A stretch of 64,000 bases of DNA from an uncultured Chthonomonadaceae bacterium (lineage in GTDB: Bacteria; Armatimonadota; Chthonomonadetes; Chthonomonadales; Chthonomonadaceae), in assembly GCA_963817895.1 (NCBI GenBank), contig CAWFQB010000001.1, forward strand, positions 352,001 to 416,000, read 5' to 3'. The translations under genes were made by a program, and so were the position numbers. Of the stretch, positions 3,399 through 63,500 are shown piece by piece (position 1 is the first letter of the stretch; each line of letters begins with the position of its first letter). The notes below the pieces were generated by a model, which worked only from the letters and a program-made list of their open reading frames with translations, was not told where the DNA came from and made no database searches.

Positions 3399-4385
3399 TC
3401 ATCTGACGGCACAGGGTTCTGTTTCGCTGTGGGCAACGGCTTGCGACGCGGCGGCTTGCCCCTGATAGACAAGATACTGCTTGTCTACGGGACACTTCCA
3501 GCCGTCGCGCATCCCGCGCAAAAAGTAGATGACGCGGTTTAGTCCGAACGGACGGCGCAGAGCCATAGCCGACCAGAGCGTAGGCGCAACGGCATACGCG
3601 CCGAGTTCCCACAACAGCAGGACAAGGGCCGCCGGGTGTCCGCGTTTGAGGGGCTTGATATGGGCCGCGCCAATGCCATAAAACGCATTGCAGGCCAGCG
3701 CGCGTCCCTCGGTCCAGTTGCGGAAGCCGTAGTGGTACACTCTGCTGTCACGCGATTCGTAGACATGGAACCCGGCAAGAACGCACCGAATGGTCATGTC
3801 CCGATCCACGCAGGCTTTGAACGAGCCGCCGGGGCAGAGTTCGGGGTCGAACCCGCCCAACCCGAGAATATGCCGCCGATTCACAACGGTATTGGCCCCG
3901 ATGCCGCGCGCCGACAGCTTTTGCCAGATGTTGGTGACGAGCCGATCCTGATTGACGTAGTAGGTGGGGATAAATCCTTGCAGCGGGTCGTGGTCTACGG
4001 GCAGCACATTGCCGTAGGTGATCGCCAGTTTCTCATCGCGGGCAAACGCCTGCACCTGCTGAATGGGCCAGTCGGCAAGAACTTCACAATCATCATCCGT
4101 AATGGCAACGAGGTCGTGTTTTGCCAGGCGCAAGCCCTCGTTCAGCGCCAGCCCTTTGCCCTGCGTGTCGGTGTGAATATAGCGCAGGCGCGGATCATCG
4201 CGAAAGGCTCTGAGCGCGTCTTCTGTGTTCGAATCGGAGGATTGGTCTACAATCAGCAATTCCTCGCAGCGCGTGTCGGCGGCAAGGATGCTGCGCACAG
4301 TGGGTATCAGGGAGCCGCCACGATTCCGGGTGCAAATCAGCACGGAAAAAGGGTCGCAGGTTGTAGCCGATTGCTGTAGTAGCAT
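3399..4385 (-). CDS. Glycosyltransferase family 2
   Basis: SVLICTRNR, LLIVDQS, GKGLALNEG, TDDDC (DxD) motifs. Confidence 0.88.
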   Translation of the reverse strand: MLLQQSATTCDPFSVLICTRNRGGSLIPTVRSILAADTRCEELLIVDQSSDSNTEDALRAFRDDPRLRYIHTDTQGKGLALNEGLRLAKHDLVAITDDDCEVLADWPIQQVQAFARDEKLAITYGNVLPVDHDPLQGFIPTYYVNQDRLVTNIWQKLSARGIGANTVVNRRHILGLGGFDPELCPGGSFKACVDRDMTIRCVLAGFHVYESRDSRVYHYGFRNWTEGRALACNAFYGIGAAHIKPLKRGHPAALVLLLWELGAYAVAPTLWSAMALRRPFGLNRVIYFLRGMRDGWKCPVDKQYLVYQGQAAASQAVAHSETEPCAVR

Positions 4386-4641
4386 GTCTCTCTTTTGATT
4401 ATATTTTACATGTCCCGTTCGCGCAGGGCGAACACTCCTCGGACGTTTCCAACGCCTATTTTCGGCGCGTTACGCGGCTCGCTGTAACCTCTTCCCCGAC
4501 ACGATGCGAACTTGTAAGGCAAACGTTCGGCTGCTTCCGGCGGCACTCCTGTGATTTTGACGAATAACCCGGTATATAAGTTCATATTACCAGAAAACGG
4601 GGAAATCGGTACGGTGAATCTACATTTTTCAGGGCTAACGC

Positions 4642-5061
4642 CTCTAAACGGAAAAAGAAAAGAGTATGTAGAGACAGCGTCGAAATATTGGCAATGCAGC
4701 GCTTTCAGCCCAGTGTCTCGTTGTGTCAAGTTTTTATGTCGAGGCGTCGTGACCTCCGTAGGGTTAAGGAGAACGAGTATATACAGGCATCATCCAGCAC
4801 CTCCCTTCCAGGTTAGATTGTTGTGAGCGCAGAGGAACTCCGCGCTTTCAACGGCCCGCCACCTGGCTATTTAGTAGACGCATGTTTAGACGAGGCGAAT
4901 ACAGAAGGGGGTTCGTTTATTTTGCTGTTTAACCAGAAACTTTTCTACCTTTTTTACGCGTTCCTGCTGGCTTTGGCAACAGGAAAAAGGAGCAGGCACA
5001 GCATGGGGGCGAATGTGCCACGACGAGATAGGTGTTGAGCATTTTAGATGCGCCGATCCTG
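4642..5061 (-). repeat. Conserved ~420-bp dispersed element, copy 1 (candidate structured RNA with micro-ORF)
   Basis: Aligns along its length with the reverse complement of 27136..27566; the 4642-4823 core is roughly 85-90% identical by manual alignment. Confidence 0.9.
4764..4790 (-). CDS. Candidate 8-aa micropeptide MPVYTRSP (copy 1)
   Basis: AAGGGAGGTG SD, 7-nt spacer, ATG CCT GTA TAT ACT CGT TCT CCT TAA; same peptide in copy 2 with only synonymous changes. Confidence 0.6.
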   Translation of the reverse strand: MPVYTRSP

Positions 5062-13753: not shown

Positions 13754-13826
13754 TACGCCTGGTTGGATTCGAACCAACGGCTTCTTGCTCCGGAGGCAAG
13801 CACTCTATCCACTGAGCTACAGGCGC
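13754..13826 (-). tRNA. tRNA-Arg (CCG)
   Basis: GCGCCTG acceptor stem, CTTGC-CTCCGGA-GCAAG anticodon arm, GTTGG-TTCGAAT-CCAAC T arm; no encoded CCA. Confidence 0.95.
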
Positions 13827-13973: not shown

Positions 13974-14045
13974 GCCTGAGTGGCGCAATGGTAGCGCAAC
14001 GGTTTTGTAAACCGTCGGTTGCGGGTTCGATTCCTGTCTCAGGCC
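13974..14045 (+). tRNA. tRNA-Thr (TGT)
   Basis: GCCTGAG/CTCAGGC acceptor stem, ACGGT-TTTGTAA-ACCGT anticodon arm, GGTTCGATTCC T loop. Confidence 0.95.
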
Positions 14046-14193: not shown

Positions 14194-17145
14194 TTATGCG
14201 TCCTCTTTTTTGTTTTCTTCCTGTTTATCTTCCTCATCTTCCGCTGACCAGTGGACATACGCGGGCGCAAAGCCCGGTACGCGCAACAGCCCCGAACTTT
14301 GTGTTTTAGGAATACGGTACACAAGGGCGCAACCGAACGCCAACTGCCCGGTTTCCGCGTCCGGGTGTTGCGTGACGCGCAGATGTTCGCCCTCAATCAA
14401 CACTTTGCCGCCGAGTACGTCCAGGGCAACGCCGATGGGATTGAGACTTGAGAGGGATGGCGAGTTGGACACAACATGTTGTGTCCCTACACTTTCTCCT
14501 TCTTCCAGCCGAATCGTCATCAGCGGCAACAACAACGGCGGGACGTGTTCGCGGGTGTCTTTGTTGCTGATGGTGAAGACGATTTCCAGCAGGCGCGTGG
14601 GGTTAGGCGCGTCGGGTTCTGGTTTTGGCTGGCCGACGAATGTGGCGAGGTCACACCGGCTTACGCGCAGTTCCAACAGGCCGTTTTCACCGGGGATTTT
14701 CTCGCCGATTCGGTATGTGGCCGGGTTCTGCCCTCCATTGCGAACGTGCTTGTCCATCCAGGCGAGGCTGCGGCGCATCTCATCCATCTTGTGGTTGGGT
14801 TCGCGCAGTCCGTGTCCCTCGCGTGGATAATGGACGAATTGCGCGGTCACGCCCCGATGCCGCAAGGCTTGATACAGCTCCTTCGAGTTGCTGATGAACG
14901 TGTTGCTGTCCTCGTCGCCATGAATAATCAGGGTCGGGGTTTGAATGGCATCCAAATACGTGCCAGGGGACATGCGGCGATAGATTTCCGGGTCTTCCCA
15001 GTAGTACGCGCCCGCGTATTCGTTTTCCCACCGCGACAATTCCGAGTTGCTGTAATCGGTTTGCAGATGAAAGATGCCGAACATGGAAACAGCGGCCTTG
15101 AAGCGATCCGTGTGTCCAATCGCCCAGTTGGTCATGTAGCCGCCATACGAGCCGCCCATCACGCCCAGTTTTTCCGGGTCGGCAATCCCCTGCGCGATGC
15201 ACCAGTCCACGCCCGCCATGATGTCGGCAAAATCACCGCCGCCCAGGTCGCGCCTGTTGGCGACGGCAAAGTCGTTGCCGTACCCCTCGCTGCCCCGGAA
15301 GTTGGGGCGCAGCACGGCATACCCCTCCGCCGCCCAGACGGGGGCCATACTGTAGTTTTGCAGCGTGTTGGTCGCCCGTCCCTTCGGCCCGCCATGAATT
15401 TGAACAATCAAGGGGTAAGGAGTTGATGGTTGAGAGTTGAGAGTTGACAGGGATTCTTCTCCTTCTCGTATCTCGTATCTCGTATCTCGTATCTTCTCCT
15501 CTTCTCCTTTTCTCCTTTTCTCCTTTTCTTCCCCTGTTTCCGGCAGCGTCAACACGCCCTCAATGACAAGGCCGTCGGGACTGGTCCACGACACCACTTG
15601 CTGACGCGGCAGCAGGTAGTTTTGGGCAACGTCGGCGTTGAGGCGGGTCAGTTGATGCGTTTGTCCGTTTTCGTCGCGCAGAAAGATTTCCGGCAGGGCG
15701 TCCGCGCTCTCCTGCACAAAGGCGAGGCTACGCCCGCCCGGATCGCAGGCGAGGTCGTCCAGAGTGGGTGTTAGGTATTCGGTATTCGGTATTCGGTGTT
15801 CGGTCTGTGAGAGATTAAGAGTAGTGGCGAGATTGGGTTGGTTGGGTTCGCCGGGGGTGATCTGGATAATTTCCGAGCCGGTGCGGACAGCGGCAAGAAC
15901 GTAACCCAACACAGCCGGAGGCGCGTCAGGAGAAGGTTCGGTTACTTCGGCTCCTCCGGTTACTTCCTCTTCTTCGGTTTCCGTTTCGATGGGACGCGCC
16001 CATTCAAACGCGCTCAGGTCGGTATCCAGATCGGTCAGCAGGCGGCACTCCGTCAGGCCGGGCGCGTTCTGCCCGTATTCCGTTGGGGCGTGTTCGGGCA
16101 GTTCTGTGGGCGCGTCTGCCACAAACACGCACTCGCGGGAATAGGACAATTGCGGATCGAGCCACGACAGAAACGCCAGTTGTGTTCCATCCGGCGACCA
16201 GCGCAAGTGGTACTTGCCTCCCCCTCGCGCGATCAGTTTCACGGTTTTGCCCGCGTTCAAATAGCGGATGTACAAATCGGCAAGGTGGTAATCGTTGCCC
16301 TCGCCGCTGTAATTGGTGATGAAGGCCAGCCGGTCGCCATCGGGCGAAAGGGCAAATTCCGAAACGCCGTAATCGCCCATAAATAGCAATTTGGGTTTTT
16401 CTGCTTCTACATCCACGCGCCACACCTGCCGCCGCAATCGGTCATCCTGCTCGACAATCGGGTCTACCTTGCGGCGATGCCGCTCCTCTTTGCGCAGGGA
16501 TTCCAGCGGGCGAGGGCGCGGTTCGGAAGCGAGATAAACGATGCTGTTGGTGTCCGCCGCCCACTCATAGTCCAGTACGCCCTCGCGGGCCGACGTGACT
16601 TTACGCGCTTCGCCCCCGTCAATGGGCAAAATCCAGACCTGCTCCGTCGCGTCGTCCTCATCATCAGAAATGGCTTCGGTTTCATCCAGACGGGAAGACA
16701 GGAAAGCAAGATAGCGTCCATCCGGCGACCAGCGCGGCTGTATCTCCCCATCCCGCGAAAACGTCAACTGCCGCGTGAGATCATCGGCATTGTCGGTTGA
16801 CGATTGACGATTGACGATTGACGATTCCGCCTCCTCTTCTGTCTCCTTTTCTCCTTTTCCCCTTTTCTCCTTTTCTAATTCCTCTTCCTCTTCCTCCGCC
16901 GGCGCAAACTCCGTGAGCCAGAGGTGGCTGATCCAGTGGCTTTCATCGAAATCGGCTTCGGACGCGACAAAGGCGACGCGCTGGCCGTCAGGATGGATTT
17001 GCGGGTCGCTCAGGCGTTTGGTTTCGAGCAGGGCGCGGGCGGTGATACGCTGCTTCACACGCTGCGCGGGCGTGTCAACGGTCCTGGGTGTCGGGCAATT
17101 ATTCGTAATGTTGTCAATGCCGGTGGCAGGTAAATTGTCAGTCAT
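14194..17145 (-). CDS. S9-family (prolyl oligopeptidase/acylaminoacyl) peptidase with beta-propeller
   Basis: WSPDG repeats, IHGGP, PNFRGS, GGSYGG nucleophile, HGDED, YPREGHG; probable leaderless start (TATAAT 6 nt before ATG at 17145). Confidence 0.9.
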   Translation of the reverse strand: MTDNLPATGIDNITNNCPTPRTVDTPAQRVKQRITARALLETKRLSDPQIHPDGQRVAFVASEADFDESHWISHLWLTEFAPAEEEEEELEKEKRGKGEKETEEEAESSIVNRQSSTDNADDLTRQLTFSRDGEIQPRWSPDGRYLAFLSSRLDETEAISDDEDDATEQVWILPIDGGEARKVTSAREGVLDYEWAADTNSIVYLASEPRPRPLESLRKEERHRRKVDPIVEQDDRLRRQVWRVDVEAEKPKLLFMGDYGVSEFALSPDGDRLAFITNYSGEGNDYHLADLYIRYLNAGKTVKLIARGGGKYHLRWSPDGTQLAFLSWLDPQLSYSRECVFVADAPTELPEHAPTEYGQNAPGLTECRLLTDLDTDLSAFEWARPIETETEEEEVTGGAEVTEPSPDAPPAVLGYVLAAVRTGSEIIQITPGEPNQPNLATTLNLSQTEHRIPNTEYLTPTLDDLACDPGGRSLAFVQESADALPEIFLRDENGQTHQLTRLNADVAQNYLLPRQQVVSWTSPDGLVIEGVLTLPETGEEKEKRRKGEEEKIRDTRYEIREGEESLSTLNSQPSTPYPLIVQIHGGPKGRATNTLQNYSMAPVWAAEGYAVLRPNFRGSEGYGNDFAVANRRDLGGGDFADIMAGVDWCIAQGIADPEKLGVMGGSYGGYMTNWAIGHTDRFKAAVSMFGIFHLQTDYSNSELSRWENEYAGAYYWEDPEIYRRMSPGTYLDAIQTPTLIIHGDEDSNTFISNSKELYQALRHRGVTAQFVHYPREGHGLREPNHKMDEMRRSLAWMDKHVRNGGQNPATYRIGEKIPGENGLLELRVSRCDLATFVGQPKPEPDAPNPTRLLEIVFTISNKDTREHVPPLLLPLMTIRLEEGESVGTQHVVSNSPSLSSLNPIGVALDVLGGKVLIEGEHLRVTQHPDAETGQLAFGCALVYRIPKTQSSGLLRVPGFAPAYVHWSAEDEEDKQEENKKEDA

Positions 17146-26809: not shown

Positions 26810-27135
26810 AGTAGTTACCCCTCCCTTCTCAAACGACTTCCCGCAGTCGGGTCTTTTGCGAGACGCGACTGTGTATTTTTGTCTGGCTGATTCTACCGTA
26901 TTTTTACATGTTTTGCAACTTACATATTAGCAATTTGGCGCAACACGGCACTATGCTTACTTTCTAGCGTTGCCCGACTTTCACGCGCAGATCGCGCAGC
27001 AGGGGGACCGGCAGGCCGTAGATAGCATGAGCCTGCGAGATCGTGATCAGGGCGTCTTCGGGCGCGGGCAGGGCGTGGAGGGCATTGCTGTGGCGGAAGT
27101 TGACTATGACACAAACACACGCTATCCTCTCATAT

Positions 27136-27566
27136 CAGGGCCGACGCATCCAAGATGATCAACACCTGTGCTGTCGTGGCACATTCGCCACTATGTTGCG
27201 CCTGTCCTCTCTCCCCGTCGCCAAATTCAGCAAGAACACGCAAAAACGTAGAAAAATATCTGCGTAAATGGCAGAAACAAACGAACCTTCTCCATGTATG
27301 CCTCGTCTTAATCCTTACGCATGTCTACTAAACAAAGACTGCTAACAAGCCGGGCGGCGGGACGTTGAGAGTCTAAAATTCCTTTCAACAATCTAACCTG
27401 GAAGGGAGGTGCAAGAGGATGCCTGTATATACTCGGTCGCCGTAACACTTTCGAGGTCACGACGCCTCTACATACAATTTGACATAACGAGACACTGGGC
27501 TGGAAGCGCTGCATTGCCACTATTTCGACGCTGTCTCTACATACCTTTTTCTTTTCTCATTTAGAG
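27136..27566 (+). repeat. Conserved ~430-bp dispersed element, copy 2 (candidate structured RNA with micro-ORF)
   Basis: Reverse-complement homologue of 4642..5061. Confidence 0.9.
27419..27445 (+). CDS. Candidate 8-aa micropeptide MPVYTRSP (copy 2)
   Basis: AAGGGAGGTG SD, 7-nt spacer, ATG CCT GTA TAT ACT CGG TCG CCG TAA. Confidence 0.6.
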   Translation: MPVYTRSP

Positions 27567-27602
27567 CGGATGCTGTGGGCCAACCGCAGAGCAGCTTGCA
27601 AC

Positions 27603-27658
27603 CTTAACGTAACCTTAATCAAAACTTAACGTTCTCTTAATACTCCGGTGGTTATAAT
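27603..27658 (+). promoter_or_regulatory. Four CTTAA direct repeats at 11-bp period followed by TATAAT (OmpR/PhoB-type activator array)
   Basis: CTTAA at 27603, 27614, 27625, 27636; TATAAT at 27653-27658. Confidence 0.7.
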
Positions 27659-27751
27659 AAGTATGTCGCTGAATCACGATGTCGCGACTATCCTGCAAGC
27701 CCGCTGCATAGCTGCATTTGGGCTGCCGCCTTGAGTTTGAGGAGATAACCA

Positions 27752-28603
27752 TTGAAACGCAAAGCGTTTACCCTGATTGAGCTACTCGTCGTTATTGCCA
27801 TTATCGCTATTCTGGCGGCTATTCTGTTCCCCGTGTTTGCGCAGGCGCGGGAAAAGGCCCGACAGACAAGCTGCCTTTCCAACAACAAACAGCTAGGGCT
27901 TGCATTGAGCATGTACGCTCAAGATTATGATGGCACGCTGATGCAGACTTCGTGGGAACTTGGCAGTTTCAAGGCCAAAGTGCATTGGTCGTACCTGGTG
28001 CAGCCTTACGTCAAGAATCAACAGATTTTCGTGTGTCCCTCCGACCCTACGCCCGTAAAGCCCCTGAACCGATTGTGCGGCCCCGGCGACACCGTTGGCG
28101 TAACCCTGTGCGACGCGCAGGCTCCCCTGTTCTCGTACATCAACAGCTACAACGTGATGCCCGCCCACGACTGGCTGCCGCCGTCAGAAGCCGCCATTGA
28201 CAAGGCCGCCAATACCATTGTTTTAGGGGAACGCCGCAACAATATGAACGACCCCGCCATGACGCTTATCGGGCAATGGAAGGGAACATCGGCCTTTGTC
28301 GCCACGAGCGGCGGACATGGAACCGGCAGCGGCAGCGGCCAGATTTGCCCCGGCGACACCTTTCGCTTTGTGACGCTTGCCGATGTCAATGCGGGACTTG
28401 CGCCCACCAACAGCAACGACAACCCGGAAATCGTGCGCGTGAAATTCGACCGGCACACGGGCGGTTCCAACTACGCCTTTTTCGACGGTCATGCCAAGTG
28501 GTTCCGATTGGAACAGACGTTCGATCCCGGCAACTGGCAGTGGGGCGACAAGTGGTATCCCACGCCGAACCCGGACCCGCGCGCCGCTTCCAAATGTAAA
28601 TAA
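27752..28603 (+). CDS. DUF1559 prepilin-type N-terminal cleavage/methylation protein with H-X9-DG motif
   Basis: [56 protein letters not shown]. Confidence 0.92.
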
Positions 28604-33763: not shown

Positions 33764-33825
33764 AAGATACAGAAAGTGTCAGGGAAGTTACTTGTATCTC
33801 GTATCTCGTATCTCCTATCTTTCCC

Positions 33826-34557
33826 CTAATTTTTCATTTCGTCAATGACGCGCTGCCAGCGGGGGGCGTTGGTGTTCAGGGGGCGGGCGATCAGGACGGC
33901 GACGCGCTCTTCACTCTCCGCGCTTGCGTCCGGTTTGGTTGTATCGGGGCGTTCGGTTTTCAGTTCCGCGATCTGTTCGCGCAGCAGGCGCAATTCTTCC
34001 TGCAATCGCGCCCGCGTGTCCGTCATTTCCAGCAGATGCTGCTTGACCGACAGGGGCAGCATGGCGACAGACGCCACGCAAAAGGCCAGCGTTTGCGGGT
34101 CGTCGGGCAGGTCCACATCGGGCATCGGCAGATGCGCATGGGCGGCCAGAAGCGCGAGATAGTTCGAGAACAGGCCGGATACGTCGGCAATCAGTTCGCT
34201 CAGGTCGTCCGTCTCTACGTCCCGGTCTTCCCACTCCTCCACGCGCCCGATGAGATAGGGCTGATCGGCTTCCATCGTTTCCAGAACCCGGAAACGCTCC
34301 TCGCACACCGCCAGCAGGTTCATGCGGCCATCGCGCAGCCGTTCCACTTCCAGAATACGCGCCACGCAGCCGACCCTGTGCGGGGTGGCGGGCTCGCCCA
34401 CTTCATTGCCCTCCCGTATCAGCACGACGCCGAACGGGGCATTGTTGTCAATGCAGGCGTTAATCATGGCCTTGTAGCGCTCTTCAAAGATGTGCAGTTG
34501 CAGCGGAAATTGCGGAAACTGTACGCTGTTGAGCGGAAACAGAGGCAGGGTATACAA
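33826..34557 (-). CDS. LON peptidase substrate-binding domain protein
   Basis: LPLFPL...LHIFEERYKAMI...FGVVLI. Confidence 0.85.
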   Translation of the reverse strand: MYTLPLFPLNSVQFPQFPLQLHIFEERYKAMINACIDNNAPFGVVLIREGNEVGEPATPHRVGCVARILEVERLRDGRMNLLAVCEERFRVLETMEADQPYLIGRVEEWEDRDVETDDLSELIADVSGLFSNYLALLAAHAHLPMPDVDLPDDPQTLAFCVASVAMLPLSVKQHLLEMTDTRARLQEELRLLREQIAELKTERPDTTKPDASAESEERVAVLIARPLNTNAPRWQRVIDEMKN

Positions 34558-35788: not shown

Positions 35789-37888
35789 CTACGGCCAGGG
35801 GAAGGTTGGTGTTGGCGTGTAGCGGTCGTAGAGGGCGGGAAGAGTGAACAAAATCGCGGTGGTGAACTCGCCCAACACCATTCCCAAAAAGAACGGGCGC
35901 AGGCGGGCGTACAGGTTCATGCCGCCATAACGCAGCACAACAGTTTTGCATAGCCAGGCGACGAAGCAGGGGAACCAGAAGACATCCATCGTCCACGTTC
36001 CCGAAAGCGCGTAGCCGAGCGGATGCAGCGGGAACCACAGCAGGCGCGTTCGCAGTGTCGCCAATCCTACCGTGACCAGTGCGCCGATGAAGAAATTGAT
36101 TGTGGCCCAGAACGGTAGGGGCGGGCCGCTGTGATTCAGTTGCGTATTCGCGTCGTTGAACGCCCATACCGGATTCATCTGATACACGTAGCTGTACATC
36201 TGCACCGCGCCGAAACGATAGGGCAACGCGATGTGCATATACCCCGACACGAGAAGCGCGACGACGAGCGCGAGCGTAAACACGCCGAGCAGCGAACTTC
36301 GGCGCACGCGAACGCCGTCCGCAAACTTCATCGAATCGAGAAATCCCGTTAGAATCAGACCGCGCTGATCCCGCATCCACAGCGCGTCCAGAAACGCCAG
36401 TCCCGTCAGGTTCGCGGCTCCCAGATTGCGAACATCGCCCACCATCCGGTAAATGTCTATGGGTCGGAAACTGGTTTCTGTCATCAGCATTCCCGACTCG
36501 CACGTACTCCGCGCCATCACAAGCGCGACCACGAACAGCAATATGGCAATTTCAAAGAGGGCCAGCCAGTACGACATCCCCAACAGCGACATCCACCCCG
36601 CCATGCCGAGCAAGCACACAATCAATCCCCAGAACGCCGTCCGGTAGGAGAGCAACTCATCCTCGGAATTTTCGATTTTCGATTTTCGATTTTCGATTGC
36701 CTCTCCTTTTCTCCTCTTCTCCTTTTCTCCTTTTCTTCCCACCGCCGCCTGCCATACGCGCTTCAAATGCGGACGGGCGGACCAGAACATATACGCGACA
36801 AGCACCACGTAGCAGCCGATAATCTGGTAGCCCTGATACACTTTGCAGCCGTACATGGGCATGGTTTCGGGCTGATACCCTGCGCTTGCCGCCATCACGT
36901 CTTCCACTTTGGTCAGCAGAAAAAAGAACCACAGGGAGAAAAGCAAATCCGTTGGCAGCAGATAGAAGAACCCGATGGCGGCGAACGACAGATAGATGTG
37001 GAAAAATCCCGTCTGGTTGTAGGGCGGCTGCGTGAGAAATTCGCCCAGGTTGATGTCGGTTGTTACATCCGGGATGGTCGGCATGTACTGGTGCAAACCC
37101 TTCAAGCCGAACACGCAGGCGGTTATGGCGAAGCCCATCCATGTCAGGCGGTTTTGCAGGAAGCCCTCTGTTTTCGCGCCTGCGCGTCCGCCGATTGCGG
37201 TTGTGTTTTCGCCCTTGACCATTTCGAGGGGCAACTGCACAAGCGGAAATGACAATTTTTCGTTGTCCACCCACTGCCGACGCAAAATTACGGCAAGACA
37301 CAGATACGCGGTAAACATCATCGCCACGAACACGCCCCACGCCAATAGCGGCATCACCCACAACTGCCAGGGGATATGCGCGCCGGGAGGCAGGTGGTCA
37401 TAAAAGTGCGCGGCTACATCCTGTTTGGCGTCGCCAGCCGGGTTCCAGGGGACGGCCCAATGCGGAATGTTCTTGAAAAACTTCTCTTTCCAGCCGTTTT
37501 CGGGCGTGGCGAAATAGTTGGGAACAACCAGAAGCGGGATCAATTTTTGCAGCAATCCGCGCGACGACACCATAGACGCGAGGAGCATCATCACATACAC
37601 GGTAAACATCTCGTGCGGGCGCAATTGCAGGCGAGTCGAGAACCGCCGAAACAGGGCTTGTACCCCAAGCAACATTACCAACATGCCAATCACAACGGGC
37701 GGCAACTGCAAAAATCCGATCTGGATTTTGCCCACAACCAGTTCCGCATAGCATACCACCACGCAGGTTATTGCCACGCAAATCAACCCTACCACAAGCG
37801 CAGGCAGGGTCATTGCGCTGACTCTGGCGTTGGCAGCCATCGAGGCATCGGCGGCAGTGAAATTGGGTTGTGTGGAGTTGGTTTGCAT
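35789..37888 (-). CDS. DUF6785-type multi-pass membrane protein (putative transporter)
   Basis: LRRQWVDNEKLSFPLVQLP, WFPLHPLGY, LRYGG..LY..LRPFFLG. Confidence 0.8.
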   Translation of the reverse strand: MQTNSTQPNFTAADASMAANARVSAMTLPALVVGLICVAITCVVVCYAELVVGKIQIGFLQLPPVVIGMLVMLLGVQALFRRFSTRLQLRPHEMFTVYVMMLLASMVSSRGLLQKLIPLLVVPNYFATPENGWKEKFFKNIPHWAVPWNPAGDAKQDVAAHFYDHLPPGAHIPWQLWVMPLLAWGVFVAMMFTAYLCLAVILRRQWVDNEKLSFPLVQLPLEMVKGENTTAIGGRAGAKTEGFLQNRLTWMGFAITACVFGLKGLHQYMPTIPDVTTDINLGEFLTQPPYNQTGFFHIYLSFAAIGFFYLLPTDLLFSLWFFFLLTKVEDVMAASAGYQPETMPMYGCKVYQGYQIIGCYVVLVAYMFWSARPHLKRVWQAAVGRKGEKEKRRKGEAIENRKSKIENSEDELLSYRTAFWGLIVCLLGMAGWMSLLGMSYWLALFEIAILLFVVALVMARSTCESGMLMTETSFRPIDIYRMVGDVRNLGAANLTGLAFLDALWMRDQRGLILTGFLDSMKFADGVRVRRSSLLGVFTLALVVALLVSGYMHIALPYRFGAVQMYSYVYQMNPVWAFNDANTQLNHSGPPLPFWATINFFIGALVTVGLATLRTRLLWFPLHPLGYALSGTWTMDVFWFPCFVAWLCKTVVLRYGGMNLYARLRPFFLGMVLGEFTTAILFTLPALYDRYTPTPTFPWP

Positions 37889-38151: not shown

Positions 38152-40758
<2,607 letters not shown>

Positions 40759-60561: not shown

Positions 60562-63500
60562 TTATTTGACGCCGGCAGGCATCTGGTCGGCTACGTCTTC
60601 CTTGCCGCCCGCTTTGGCGGCGGCGAGTTCCTGCTGTATCTGGCGGTATTCGAGGGATACCACTTTGACGAATTGCGCCTGCGTTTCGGGCCAGTTTTGC
60701 AGCAGGGACGCGCCCCGGTCGCTGCGGGTGTACTGGACGTGCCGCTCGATCAGGGTTTTCAGTTCGGCTGTGTCGGCCTCGTCCGTGACGGCTTCGAGGG
60801 CGGTTTTGCCGCCGTTGCGGTTGCAGCGGGCGGGGAAGCGGCCTTCGGGATCCCACACATAGGCCACGCCGCCGCTCATGCCCGCCGCGAAGTTGCGCCC
60901 GACATTGCCCAGCACGACAACGGTTCCGCCTGTCATGTACTCGCAGCCGTGATCGCCCGCGCCCTCCACAACCGCAGTCGCGCCGCTGTTACGAACCGCG
61001 AACCGTTCACCCACCACGCCGCGCAAAAACACTTCGCCACTGGTTGCGCCGTACAAAAGCGTATTTCCGGCAATGATGTTCTCGGCGGGGTCGAAGGGCG
61101 ATTGGCGCGGCGGGTACACGATGATGCGTCCGCCCGATATGCCCTTGCCTAAGTAGTCGTTGGAGTCGCCTTCCAGTGTCATAGTAATGCCGCGCGCCAG
61201 AAACGCGCCGAACGATTGCCCCGCGCTGCCCGTAAATTTAAGGCGAATCGTGTCTTCCGGCAGGCCCTCCTCGCCGTATTTCAGCGCGATACGTCCCGAC
61301 AGCATGGTTCCCACGGTGCGGTTCCGGTTGTAAATGGGCAGTTCCGCCGCGACGGGAATCCCTCTGTCTACCGCGCCCTGCGAAAGCGCGATCAGATGGT
61401 AGTCCAGCGCGTCGTCAAGCCCATGATCCTGATGCTTGGCCCACGCCTGCGCGTGTTTGTCCGAACCTTCGGGCTGCGTCAGAATGGGCGTCAAGTCCAA
61501 GCCTGCCGCTTTCCAATGCTCAATGGCGCAGGTGGCGTCCAGCATGTCTATGCGGCCTACCATCTCGGCAACCGAGTTGAAACCCAGTTCGGCCATGATC
61601 TCGCGCAATTCTTCGGCCACAAAGAAGAAGTAGTTGATAACGTGTTCCGGCTGGCCCGTAAACCGCTGGCGAAGCGTTGGGTCTTGCGTCGCGATGCCGA
61701 CGGGACAGGTTCCCAGATGGCATACGCGCATCATAATGCAGCCCATCGCGACAAGCGGCGCGCTGGAAAAACCGAACTCTTCCGCGCCGAGCAGGGCGGC
61801 AATCGCCACATCGCGCCCGGTCTTCAGTTGTCCGTCCGTTTGCAGGACGACGCGCCCGCGCAGGTCGTTTTTCACCAGCGTTTGCTGCGTTTCCGCCAGT
61901 CCCATTTCCCACGGAATGCCCGCGTGTTTGATGCTGGAAACGGGCGACGCGCCCGTACCGCCGTCGTAGCCGCTGATGAGGATATGGTCGGCATGGGCTT
62001 TGGACACGCCTGCGGCAACCGTGCCGACGCCCACTTCCGCCACCAGTTTCACCGAAATACGCGCGGCAGGATTGACGTTTTTCAGGTCGAAAATCAACTG
62101 CGCGAGGTCTTCAATGGAATAGATGTCGTGGTGCGGCGGCGGGGAAATAAGGGTTACGCCGGGCGTGGTATGCCGAACGCCCGCGATATAAGCGTCCACT
62201 TTGGTTCCGGGCAGTTCGCCGCCCTCGCCGGGTTTGGCGCCCTGCGCCATTTTGATCTGCAGTTCGTCGGCATTGACCAGATAATGCGCGGTGACGCCGA
62301 ACCGCGCGGACGCGACCTGTTTGATGGCGCTGCGCCGGTTGTCGCCGTTCGCGTCGGGTTTGTAGCGAGACGGGTCTTCGCCGCCCTCGCCCGTGTTGCT
62401 TTTGCCGCCCATCCAGTTCATGGCAATGGCAAGGGTTTCGTGCGCTTCGCGGCTGATGCTGCCAAGCGACATAGCCCCGGTCACAAATCGCTTCACAATC
62501 TCCCGCGCCGGTTCCACTTCCGCAATCGGGATCGGCGTCCCCGCCTTGAAATGCAGCAAACTCCGCAGGGTCGCCAGCGCCTCACTCGTATCGTTGACGT
62601 GCCTGCTGAACTCTTTGAAGTCTTTAAATCCCGGGTGTTCGGTGTTCGGTGTTCGGTGTTCGGTATCTGTCTCCTTTTCTCCTTTTATCCTTGTATCCTT
62701 GTCTCCTTGTCTCACTGCCTGCTGCAATTTCGCCACCGTATCCGGGTTGTAGGCGTGGTGTTCGCCGAAACGCCGCCACTGGTACTGCCCGCCCGGATCG
62801 AGGTCAATGCTGCCTTTGATGTCCATTTTCGGATAGGCGTACTCGTGGCGCGACAGGGCTTCGCGCTGAATGATGTCCAGTCCGATGCCGCCCAATCGGG
62901 AGGGCGTACCCGTAAAGTAATCGCTCTGACCAGTTCTTTATCCAGACCGATGGCCTCGAATATTTGCGCGCCCCGGTAGCTTTGCAGCGTGGAGATGCCC
63001 ATTTTGGCGAACGTTTTCAGCAGGCCCTTGTTGACGGCCTTGATGAAGTTGACGCTGGCTTTGTCTACCGTAATTTCGGGCGGGAACATCTTGTCGCGCC
63101 CCATGCTGTCGAGGGTTTCCAGCGCGAGATAGGGGTTGATGGCGGACGCGCCGTAGCCGATGAGCAGGGCAAAGTGCATCACTTCCCGCGCTTCGCCGGA
63201 CTCGACGATGATGCCGACGCAGGTTCGGGTTCCTTCCCGAACGAGATGATGATGCACCGCGCTTGTCGCCAACAGGCTTGGAATGGGCGCGGTATGCTCG
63301 TCCACGCCCCGGTCGGACAAAATCAGGAAGCTGTAGCCGTCCTTTACCGCCTGCGACGCGGACGCGCACAGGTTTTCGACCGCTGTTTGCAGGGCGTCGG
63401 GACCGTCCTCCACGTCGAACCACGTCGGCAGGGTTTTGGCGTTGAACTCGCCCGTGCGAACCGCCCGCAGTTTTTCCAGCTCGAAATTGTGCAGGATGGG

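Follow-up and report, generated by a model that had tools for sequence, protein, structure and literature searches.

Introduction

Two groups of described arrest peptides come closest to the element analyzed here, a mini-gene of eight codons at the front of a structured repeat that occurs twice in a 64,000-nucleotide stretch of DNA from an uncultured Chthonomonadaceae bacterium (contig CAWFQB010000001.1 of assembly GCA_963817895.1, positions 352,001 to 416,000; the whole stretch is called the window). The first group comprises the RAPP/RxPP peptides (ApdA, ApdP) and SecM. In R-A-P-P arrest the Arg enters a pocket in the peptidyl transferase center (PTC) and is essential, an Ala-to-Ser exchange has mild consequences and RxPP is enough as a minimal motif (PMC10951233, in part). 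The second group, which includes TnaC, PepNL, SpeFL and MsrDL, arrests at a stop codon (PMC8450073 and PMC11890864, both in part). In TnaC, Arg23 together with bases of the ribosomal RNA blocks release factor 2 (RF2), and overexpression of tnaC depletes tRNA-Pro; the same source refers to studies of C-terminal Pro and of SsrA tagging at stop codons (PMC11890864, in part). Termination is also affected by the fourth base, the one that follows the stop codon (PMC5373646, in part), and the ribosome shields messenger RNA up to +17 from the P site (PMC6238534, in part).

The element shares features with both groups. Like the RAPP/RxPP peptides and SecM, it has Arg at the third codon before the stop (-3), Pro at the last codon (-1) and a tolerant residue in between (compare PMC10951233, in part), and because this determinant is PTC-proximal, arrest could operate on a nascent chain of very few residues. 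Unlike them, its open reading frame (ORF) has only 8 to 16 codons, it has no secreted substrate to monitor, it does not lie upstream of protein-localization genes, one of its subfamilies has Leu for Arg, and its stalling is predicted. With TnaC it shares a short upstream ORF, a Pro before an RF2-type stop and a nearby Arg (PMC11890864, in part), and arrest at the stop codon, which we propose for the element, would be common to it and the whole second group. The differences from TnaC-type leaders are an Arg at -3 rather than -2, the lack of a dedicated operon, the 47 to 161 mobile copies per genome, and the absence of a Trp or Asp sensor, for which the peptide is too short; with 8-9 residues, no Trp, variable N-terminal halves and unrelated neighbors, the copies are not tryptophan-sensing leaders of the TnaC type.

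Two further comparisons bear on the stop codon and on the carrier. At the autoregulatory site of prfB, the RF2 gene, UGA followed by C makes a weak RF2-dependent stop beside a strong element like a Shine-Dalgarno (SD) sequence, a combination that our module also has, and C is the weakest fourth base after a stop; the element differs from the prfB site in that no +1 or 0 frame is conserved past its stop and its linker varies by single nucleotides. The carrier resembles trans-mobilized miniature inverted-repeat transposable elements (MITEs) in having the ends of a resident insertion sequence (IS), target duplications, intergenic copies in random orientation and uneven numbers among congeners, and differs from them in that its interior, the mini-ORF and two hairpins, is better conserved than its terminal inverted repeats (TIRs).

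Below we document the repeat family, its signatures of mobility, the selection that acts on frame, codons and stop codon, and, on the sense strand, a pair of hairpins that covary. From these sequence patterns we infer that the element is transcribed and translated, that termination pauses, and that the pause has a consequence. Our tentative reading is that the element is a cis-acting mini-gene that may pause termination at the front of a structured RNA of about 170 nt, in a genus-specific MITE family of ISAs1 type.

Results

A short frame constrained at its C-terminal end

At both window sites the module described in the original prediction is present in full: GGGAGGTG, a 7-nt spacer, an ATG-initiated frame of eight codons and TAA. 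In copy 2, on the plus strand, the SD sequence GGGAGGTG occupies 27404-27411 and complements the 3' end of 16S rRNA from the organism's own genome, and the mini-ORF for MPVYTRSP, whose frame, R at -3, P at -1 and stop are the conserved features, spans 27419..27445 (ATG 27419; TAA 27443-27445). In copy 1, on the minus strand, the SD sequence lies at 4798..4805 and the same peptide is encoded at 4764..4790 (ATG 4790; TAA 4766-4764); a second in-frame ATG at 4793-4791, 3 nt upstream of this start, had been overlooked. The two ORFs differ as CGG/CGT, TCG/TCT and CCG/CCT, so that the claim that all differences are synonymous holds.

The two diverged copies first described are a large undercount. 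The 45-nt module belongs to a core of about 170 nt with 47 copies in the own genome (G000; 7.48 Mb, 81% complete, 14 contigs), and a blastn search of that genome with the core at 27380-27570 returned 48 hits on 12 of the 14 contigs. The window copies themselves are similar over about 430 nt, not 45 nt, and their best-conserved part in the pairwise alignment lies downstream of the ORF. Further copies come from two congeners, G001 and G002.

The frame is kept across these copies. In all 46 alignable G000 copies the start codon (ATG in 45, CTG in one) and the stop each keep to one alignment column, no stop interrupts the frame, and its length is 27 nt in 31 copies and 30 nt in the other 15, with 3-nt indels only, unlike that of the linker downstream, which varies in 1-nt steps and shows all lengths between 20 and 24 nt as well as 27 nt. 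Such an in-frame pattern is far beyond chance. A GGAGG[TC]G SD sequence precedes the frame in 43 of the 46 copies, and the spacer behind the SD sequence ranges from 6 to 9 nt, being 7 nt long in 36 of the 46. The GGAGG[TC]G motif lies upstream of only two of 3,634 called genes, these being the well-scoring ORFs from our own simple gene caller. GGAGG occurs within 20 nt of the longest-ORF start in 200 of these 3,634, a rough figure because the starts are unrefined. The element's SD sequence is thus exceptional for this genome, since GGAGG is so rare before called genes.

We next consider the codons counted back from the stop, in a stop-anchored table of 72 copies (46 G000, 21 G002, 5 G001); four of 76 copies were dropped from it, two as fragments lacking the ORF region and two, which nonetheless have intact ORFs, for failing the hairpin pattern. 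Codon -3 is CGN in 69 of 72 copies (CGT 46, CGA 9, CGG 8, CGC 6) and codon -1 is CCN in 70 of 72 (CCC 35, CCG 15, CCT 15, CCA 5), while codon -2 is chiefly TCG, CCG or GCG (Ser, Pro, Ala); within G000 alone, R at -3 and P at -1 are each found in 44 of 46 copies, which is the Arg-x-Pro arrangement at the P site. The stop is TGA in 39 copies, TAA in 32 and TAG in one. The fourth base is C in 63 of 72 copies, compared with 22.6% after stops genome-wide, and hairpin 1 begins 7 nt past the stop in 69 copies and 8 nt past it in three. A second set, 77 copies parsed from 80 loci among the matches listed in a scan of one genome per species and including 62 new copies, has TGA in 75, TAA in one and TAG in one, with the 7-nt gap in 76 of 77. 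The TAG copy of both sets is the same G001 copy, so TAG is counted once in 134 distinct copies, against 27.8% of the 3,634 called genes; our binomial test for TAG took 2 of 149 copies and thus counted 15 copies twice.

Parsimony counts place the constraint at the level of the codon. On a 72-copy tree built from the non-ORF parts, Fitch steps at positions one, two and three are 2, 2 and 18 for the Arg codon (19 codon changes, three of them amino-acid changes), 2, 0 and 26 for the Pro codon (27 codon changes, two amino-acid changes) and 0, 13 and 1 for the stop codon, which switched between stop codons 14 times and was never lost. Spacer bases +8 to +10 take 25-27 steps each and have no codon periodicity. 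The tree is short and poorly resolved, which inflates all step counts alike and does not create the contrast between codon positions. Third positions thus change freely and first and second positions are nearly frozen at Arg (-3) and Pro (-1). Read-through, or a +1 frame past the stop, was rejected in view of the aperiodic spacer and the single-nucleotide variation in linker length.

The peptide itself is another matter. The earlier claim of a conserved micropeptide MPVYTRSP fails, since exactly this peptide is encoded by four of 46 G000 copies and the 46 encode 30 distinct peptides. Among the matches listed in the species scan, the commonest peptide of the second set is MFHPSRSP, with 26 copies in one genome. 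Some G001 copies have 15-16 codons, TTG, CTG or GTG starts and an R-P-P-stop end, and a diverged subfamily, type D, with seven members in G001, one in G000 and a few in G002, encodes M-[LI]-x-L-[LI]-P-L-P-P-stop. Single copies have deviant ends (R-S-T, R-P-S, G-A-P, H-P-P). The copies agree in having a short frame behind a strong SD sequence, Pro as the residue at -1, in most cases together with Arg at -3, a stop that RF2 can read, C as the +4 base and a hairpin that begins 7 nt past the stop; the peptide is constrained only at its C-terminal end, and with it the stop and the spacing. Of the claim that a translated octapeptide is under selection, the part that stands is that a short frame that gene callers would miss is selected; the octapeptide is not conserved.

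These data bear on the proposal that the element makes a diffusible signaling micropeptide, or a dual-function small RNA (sRNA), with the 8-9-residue product as the active molecule. Very short functional peptides exist, and a strong SD sequence and an intact frame in nearly all copies are what such a product would have. The confinement of constraint to the C-terminal end, the stop and the spacing is evidence against a diffusible signal: the stop type, the +4 base and the spacing are not needed by a free peptide, the N-terminal halves vary (MPVY, MFHP, MLCL, MYYY), lengths range from 8 to 16 residues across species, and no export, modification or receptor gene recurs nearby. With whole-peptide conservation absent, we regard this as the least probable of the explanations considered.

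Two covarying hairpins and an invariant block

Downstream of the stop, an RNAalifold consensus has a hairpin 1 in which a 5-bp stem closes a CACGAC loop, and a hairpin 2 of 49 nt that encloses a 31-nt block. Conservation peaks here: minor-allele cells in the G000 alignment amount to 2.7% in the 31-nt block and 2.9% in hairpin 1, compared with 8.7% in the SD sequence, 9.1% at first and second and 38% at third positions of the last three codons, 45% in the 7-nt spacer, 47% in the tail and 39% in the 5' flank. Across 70 copies the second stem pair of hairpin 1 is A-U in 63, U-A in five and C-G in two, and the basal stem of hairpin 2 also covaries (C-G 61 and A-U 7 at one pair; A-U 64 and G-C 2 at another). 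In the two hairpins together 98.7% of cells are paired, four pairs have double-sided changes (17 cells), and the covariation score is matched by none of 500 shuffles and exceeds that of every slid control; the alignment used for these pair counts was fitted to the covariance model, which favors structure. Three well-conserved G-U pairs would turn into A-C mismatches if the opposite strand were folded, so the hairpins belong to the strand that bears the ORF. Type D copies of G001 keep the pairing with a rewritten hairpin 1 (GTGG...CCAC or TCGGC...GCCGA) and a recoded base of hairpin 2 (GAGAAG/CTTCTC, GAGAAC/GTTCTC or GAGAAAC/GTTTCTC). Past hairpin 2 and a TACATA motif, the next 28 nt are 42% T and 33% C (44 copies).

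The block could in principle act as DNA, as an outward promoter for an alternative sigma factor or a protein-binding site that the mini-ORF merely insulates. It is invariant even at positions that are loops in the RNA model, and its GGAAGC and CGAC boxes, 18 nt apart, may resemble promoters of the extracytoplasmic function (ECF) type. The stems flanking and inside the block nevertheless covary and keep their G-U pairs, promoters do not normally freeze their spacer, and for a sigma-54 site, which we tried and rejected, the spacing is off by 2 nt. We consider the DNA-level explanation very unlikely.

Several other candidate functions were also rejected. The only match resembling a sigma-70 promoter in copy 2, at 27365-27392, consists of hairpin arms whose spacing varies among copies, and a scan of copy 1 for sigma-70 promoters found none. 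Sequestration of the SD sequence by the pyrimidine-rich tail is seen in the minimum-energy fold, yet the duplex with a copy's own tail (mean -13.6) is no better than with shuffled tails (-14.3), and only slightly better than with random intergenic 28-mers (-11.1, sd 4.0). As for a target of the block in trans, the 50 sense or antisense 13-mer matches outside the elements look like chance and have no recurring locus.

A carrier with the ends of an ISAs1 insertion sequence

The element described as non-genic belongs to a MITE-like mobile repeat family, which had gone unseen. The long form, to which both window copies belong, measures 430-476 bp, has 19-nt TIRs and encodes no transposase. Fourteen long copies start at a common left boundary, CAGGGCCGGCGCATCTAAAA, and the reverse complement of this sequence follows the pyrimidine tail in many copies. 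With up to five mismatches in 19 allowed, a left TIR is found in nine of the 47 G000 copies, a right one in 11 and both in three. Direct repeats of 10 bp with at least 9/10 identity flank five of 10 complete copies in the loci examined, whereas mismatched flank pairs reached 8/10 in none of 2,000 cases; the target duplication of copy 1 has decayed, since its flanking 10-mers match at only 6/10. An autonomous partner is at hand: elements of about 1.25 kb in the same genome have the MITE's TIRs and a 388-aa ORF that encodes an ISAs1-family transposase (NF033564, 402 bits against a cut-off of 70) and also matches DDE_Tnp_1_assoc and DDE_Tnp_1. Copies of this insertion sequence are full-length, frameshifted or internally deleted in G000 (for example G000:C4:225300-226970), and the intact transposase ORF has a short internal tandem duplication, seen as two matched stretches.

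The core can be dispensed with in transposition, being absent from the IS that encodes the transposase. It also stands behind two other 5' modules, in short and apparently TIR-less copies, one of these modules having a conserved TGTTAATAT box that resembles an extended -10; the 5' domain of the long form is carried by only about 12-15 copies per genome. About 31 of the 47 G000 copies have no recognizable TIR and still hold the core.

A selfish MITE without cellular function, with conservation left over from recent master-copy bursts and gene conversion and an incidental ORF, would account for the TIRs, the 10-bp target duplications and the matching insertion sequence, as well as for copy numbers of 6-13, 47 and 161 among congeners at non-syntenic positions (neither G001 nor G002 has a syntenic counterpart to the flanks of either window copy, be it occupied by the element or empty) and for the one subfamily peptide that recurs 26 times in a genome among the matches listed. 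It sits poorly with an approximately 15-fold rate difference within the same copies, between block and hairpin 1 on one side and spacer and tail on the other, with third codon positions that change at the spacer's rate next to frozen first and second ones, and with the loss of both TIRs from copies that keep the core. That the core outlasts the TIRs speaks against simple neutral decay after a burst, and we think a purely selfish element quite improbable.

A family confined to one genus among the genomes searched

Copy number varies widely between the three genomes that carry the family. At up to two mismatches the 31-nt block is found 47 times in G000 (24 and 23 on the two strands), 161 times in G002 (76 and 85) and six times in G001 (three and three), and the reversed pattern, as a control, gave no match. 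A covariance model built from 64 copies matches 47 times in G000, at least 83 times in G002 and 13 times in G001 and gives no match in the other 39 genomes of the family (three of 42 genomes, one of 23 genera). In a sample of the phylum the 31-nt pattern, at up to three mismatches, is confined to three of 401 genomes and one of 207 genera; BLAST against 40 relatives found matches only in the two congeners and none in the 38 genomes of other genera; and the scan of one genome per species had, among the matches listed, only two metagenome-assembled genome records, both titled Chthonomonadaceae. The repeat family is therefore restricted to one genus among the genomes searched.

At the gathering threshold, Rfam 15 gave no match to the element in the whole window; its sole matches there are two divergently placed tRNA genes at 13754-13826 (minus) and 13974-14045 (plus). 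With E up to 10, the region 27050-27750 has one chance-level match (E = 7.6), outside the element core. We found no description of such an element in the literature searched, and a search for publications on ISAs1 plus MITE listed nothing relevant by title or abstract.

Genomic context

By our own crude gene calls, all 48 blastn copies are intergenic. Of these, 28 have a co-oriented gene downstream, starting 23-430 nt from the element, and the other 20 a convergent one, often less than 100 nt from the element's 3' end; G001 copies have the same mixture. Copy 2 has as neighbors a DUF1559/N-methyl (prepilin-like) gene at 27752-28603 on the plus strand and a cyclase, and copy 1 a GT2 glycosyltransferase at 4385 and a Schlafen/AlbA_2 protein. 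As these neighbors are mutually unrelated, the element is not the dedicated leader of any gene family. The DUF1559 gene at 27752-28603 belongs to a large paralogous family, because its 5' end has many partial matches in G001.

An arrangement of this kind raises the question of whether the element is a portable 5' leader or attenuator cassette, in which a stalled ribosome would control read-through into the downstream gene (through Rho or a terminator in hairpin 2), the MITE would spread the switch and only co-oriented copies would be in use. The 28 co-oriented copies, with DUF1559/N-methyl at 27752 and GT2 at 4385 as the candidates in the window, are what this proposal expects, and the succession of SD sequence, upstream ORF ending in Pro-stop, G-poor linker, hairpin and pyrimidine tail resembles leader control of the tnaC type (PMC11890864, in part). 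The 20 copies that face the 3' end of a convergent gene are difficult to fit, as are the lack of orientation bias and of a common downstream gene family; in our reading no antiterminator pairing is conserved across subfamilies, and a consensus scan called no canonical terminator, including at the copy 2 tail (27538..27558). We judge the cassette unlikely, if less so than the selfish element.

Layout of the two window copies

Copy 2 begins at a left TIR, CAGGGCCGACGCATCCAAG, at 27136..27154 (plus strand), with three mismatches to the 19-nt consensus and 363 nt upstream of the 31-nt block; the left conservation boundary of the 14 long copies falls at this TIR in the alignment. The 5' domain of the long form follows at 27155..27403 (plus), with a conserved GTCTACTA box in the long-copy alignment and a hairpin (arms 27364-27371 and 27382-27389, plus) for which other copies have compensatory variants in the arms. 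Between this 5' hairpin and the SD sequence, one G002 copy and one G000 copy have variable numbers of an ATCAACT heptamer.

Past the stop of copy 2, all on the plus strand, come the 7-nt spacer at 27446..27452, with C at +4 and other positions that vary freely among copies; hairpin 1 of the consensus fold (GAGGT-CACGAC-GCCTC) at 27453..27468; an A/C-rich, G-poor linker with a TTGACA box at 27469..27488, 20-27 nt long among copies in the core alignments; hairpin 2 at 27489..27537, enclosing the invariant block at 27499-27529; TACATA and a pyrimidine-rich tail, a possible 3' end, at 27538..27558; and a decayed right terminal repeat at 27558..27581 that falls below the 5-mismatch threshold of the TIR search. 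Copy 1 is a complete MITE of 432 bp at 4630..5061 on the minus strand (left TIR 5061-5043, right TIR 4648-4630), with hairpin 1 at 4741..4756 (minus), beginning 7 nt past the stop, and the invariant block of hairpin 2 at 4679..4709 (minus; G000:C1:356679-356709).

Other repeats in the window are two tandem 52-nt units at 2227-2330, each with a CCCTTCTCCC...GGAGAAGGGG palindrome resembling repetitive extragenic palindromes, which is also found upstream of several short (family B) element copies. Tandem arrays of 7-8 nt (CTCGTAT and CTCCTTTT types) lie at 15465-15529, 16826-16876, 33798-33840, 36678-36744 and 62654-62712, and a related pair of CCGAACA arrays at 15742-15789 and 38271-38318.

Discussion

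The original observation is real and much stronger than could be known from two copies. Its interpretation needs changing, from a conserved micropeptide in two copies to what looks like an arrest-like mini-gene in a mobile, structured RNA module. Among the options first offered, ribosome arrest, suggested by the Pro-stop ending that also occurs in TnaC, fits best. In the mechanism that we propose, a ribosome would load on the perfect SD sequence of the module, read 8-9 codons (15-16 in a congener) and then terminate slowly. Four features would make it pause: the P site would hold Pro-tRNA, in most copies with the Arg at -3 that R-x-P-P arrest motifs also have; the stop is UGA or UAA, so that RF2 is the only release factor able to read it in every copy; C directly follows the stop; and a hairpin begins exactly 7 nt past it, where the footprint of the ribosome has its edge. 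Measured from the first base of the Pro codon in the P site, the distance to hairpin 1 is 14 nt, so that a ribosome at the stop and the hairpin must interact. What becomes of the RNA that follows, namely the two hairpins, the block in the second and the pyrimidine tail, would then depend on the waiting ribosome, whether by way of RNA folding, sRNA stability, 3'-end formation, read-through into neighboring genes, or titration of RF2 or tRNA-Pro. Independent subfamilies keep this design with other peptides, one ending in R-P-P-stop after 15-16 codons and one in L-P-P-stop with a recoded hairpin.

A number of observations weigh against a paused termination of this kind. Arg at -3 is not universal, being replaced by Leu in type D and by Gly, Leu or His in single copies, and the RAPP mechanism is not simply transferable, because in each copy a stop, and not a Pro codon, occupies the A site. 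Broken copies occur: two of 77 are frameshifted, with the same sequence, among the matches listed, one G001 copy has an in-frame TGA after a GTG start, and in G000 the SD sequence is weak in three of 46 copies and the final Pro missing in two of 46. The folding energy of the element is no better than that of shuffled sequences (z = +1.5, -0.76 and -0.17). Downstream genes come in both orientations and no regulated target is evident from the sequences. Lastly, a family restricted to one genus has copies of recent common ancestry, and gene conversion has probably occurred, given one G000 pair whose cores are 99% identical over 141 nt and whose flanks differ.

A wider reading, which we regard as possible though doubtful, is that a mobile element has captured and spreads a new class of termination arrest, (R/L)-x-P, UGA or UAA, C and a hairpin at +7, directed at RF2 and not at an incoming Pro-tRNA. 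Under the same reading, the 47-161 strongly initiating copies could form a genome-wide gauge of, or sink for, RF2, Pro-tRNA or EF-P capacity, or each copy could be an unusually stable small RNA capped by a ribosome, with an invariant 31-nt loop domain that binds a common partner in the cell.

The usual view takes MITEs for DNA that is neutral or regulates crudely, and each arrest peptide for the leader of one particular gene; both are combined here in a transposon-borne ORF whose only conserved message is an Arg-x-Pro end and an RF2 stop, followed by a hairpin. For the discovery of small proteins this is a caution, in that a textbook signature of synonymous substitution need not make the peptide the product. 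If the pause that we propose is true, the R-x-P rule would hold for arrest at termination as well as during elongation, and the element would provide a minimal arrest cassette of eight codons that is easily tested in vitro. Transposition would then be able to spread such cassettes through a genome, where they may seed regulation or tax the translation machinery.

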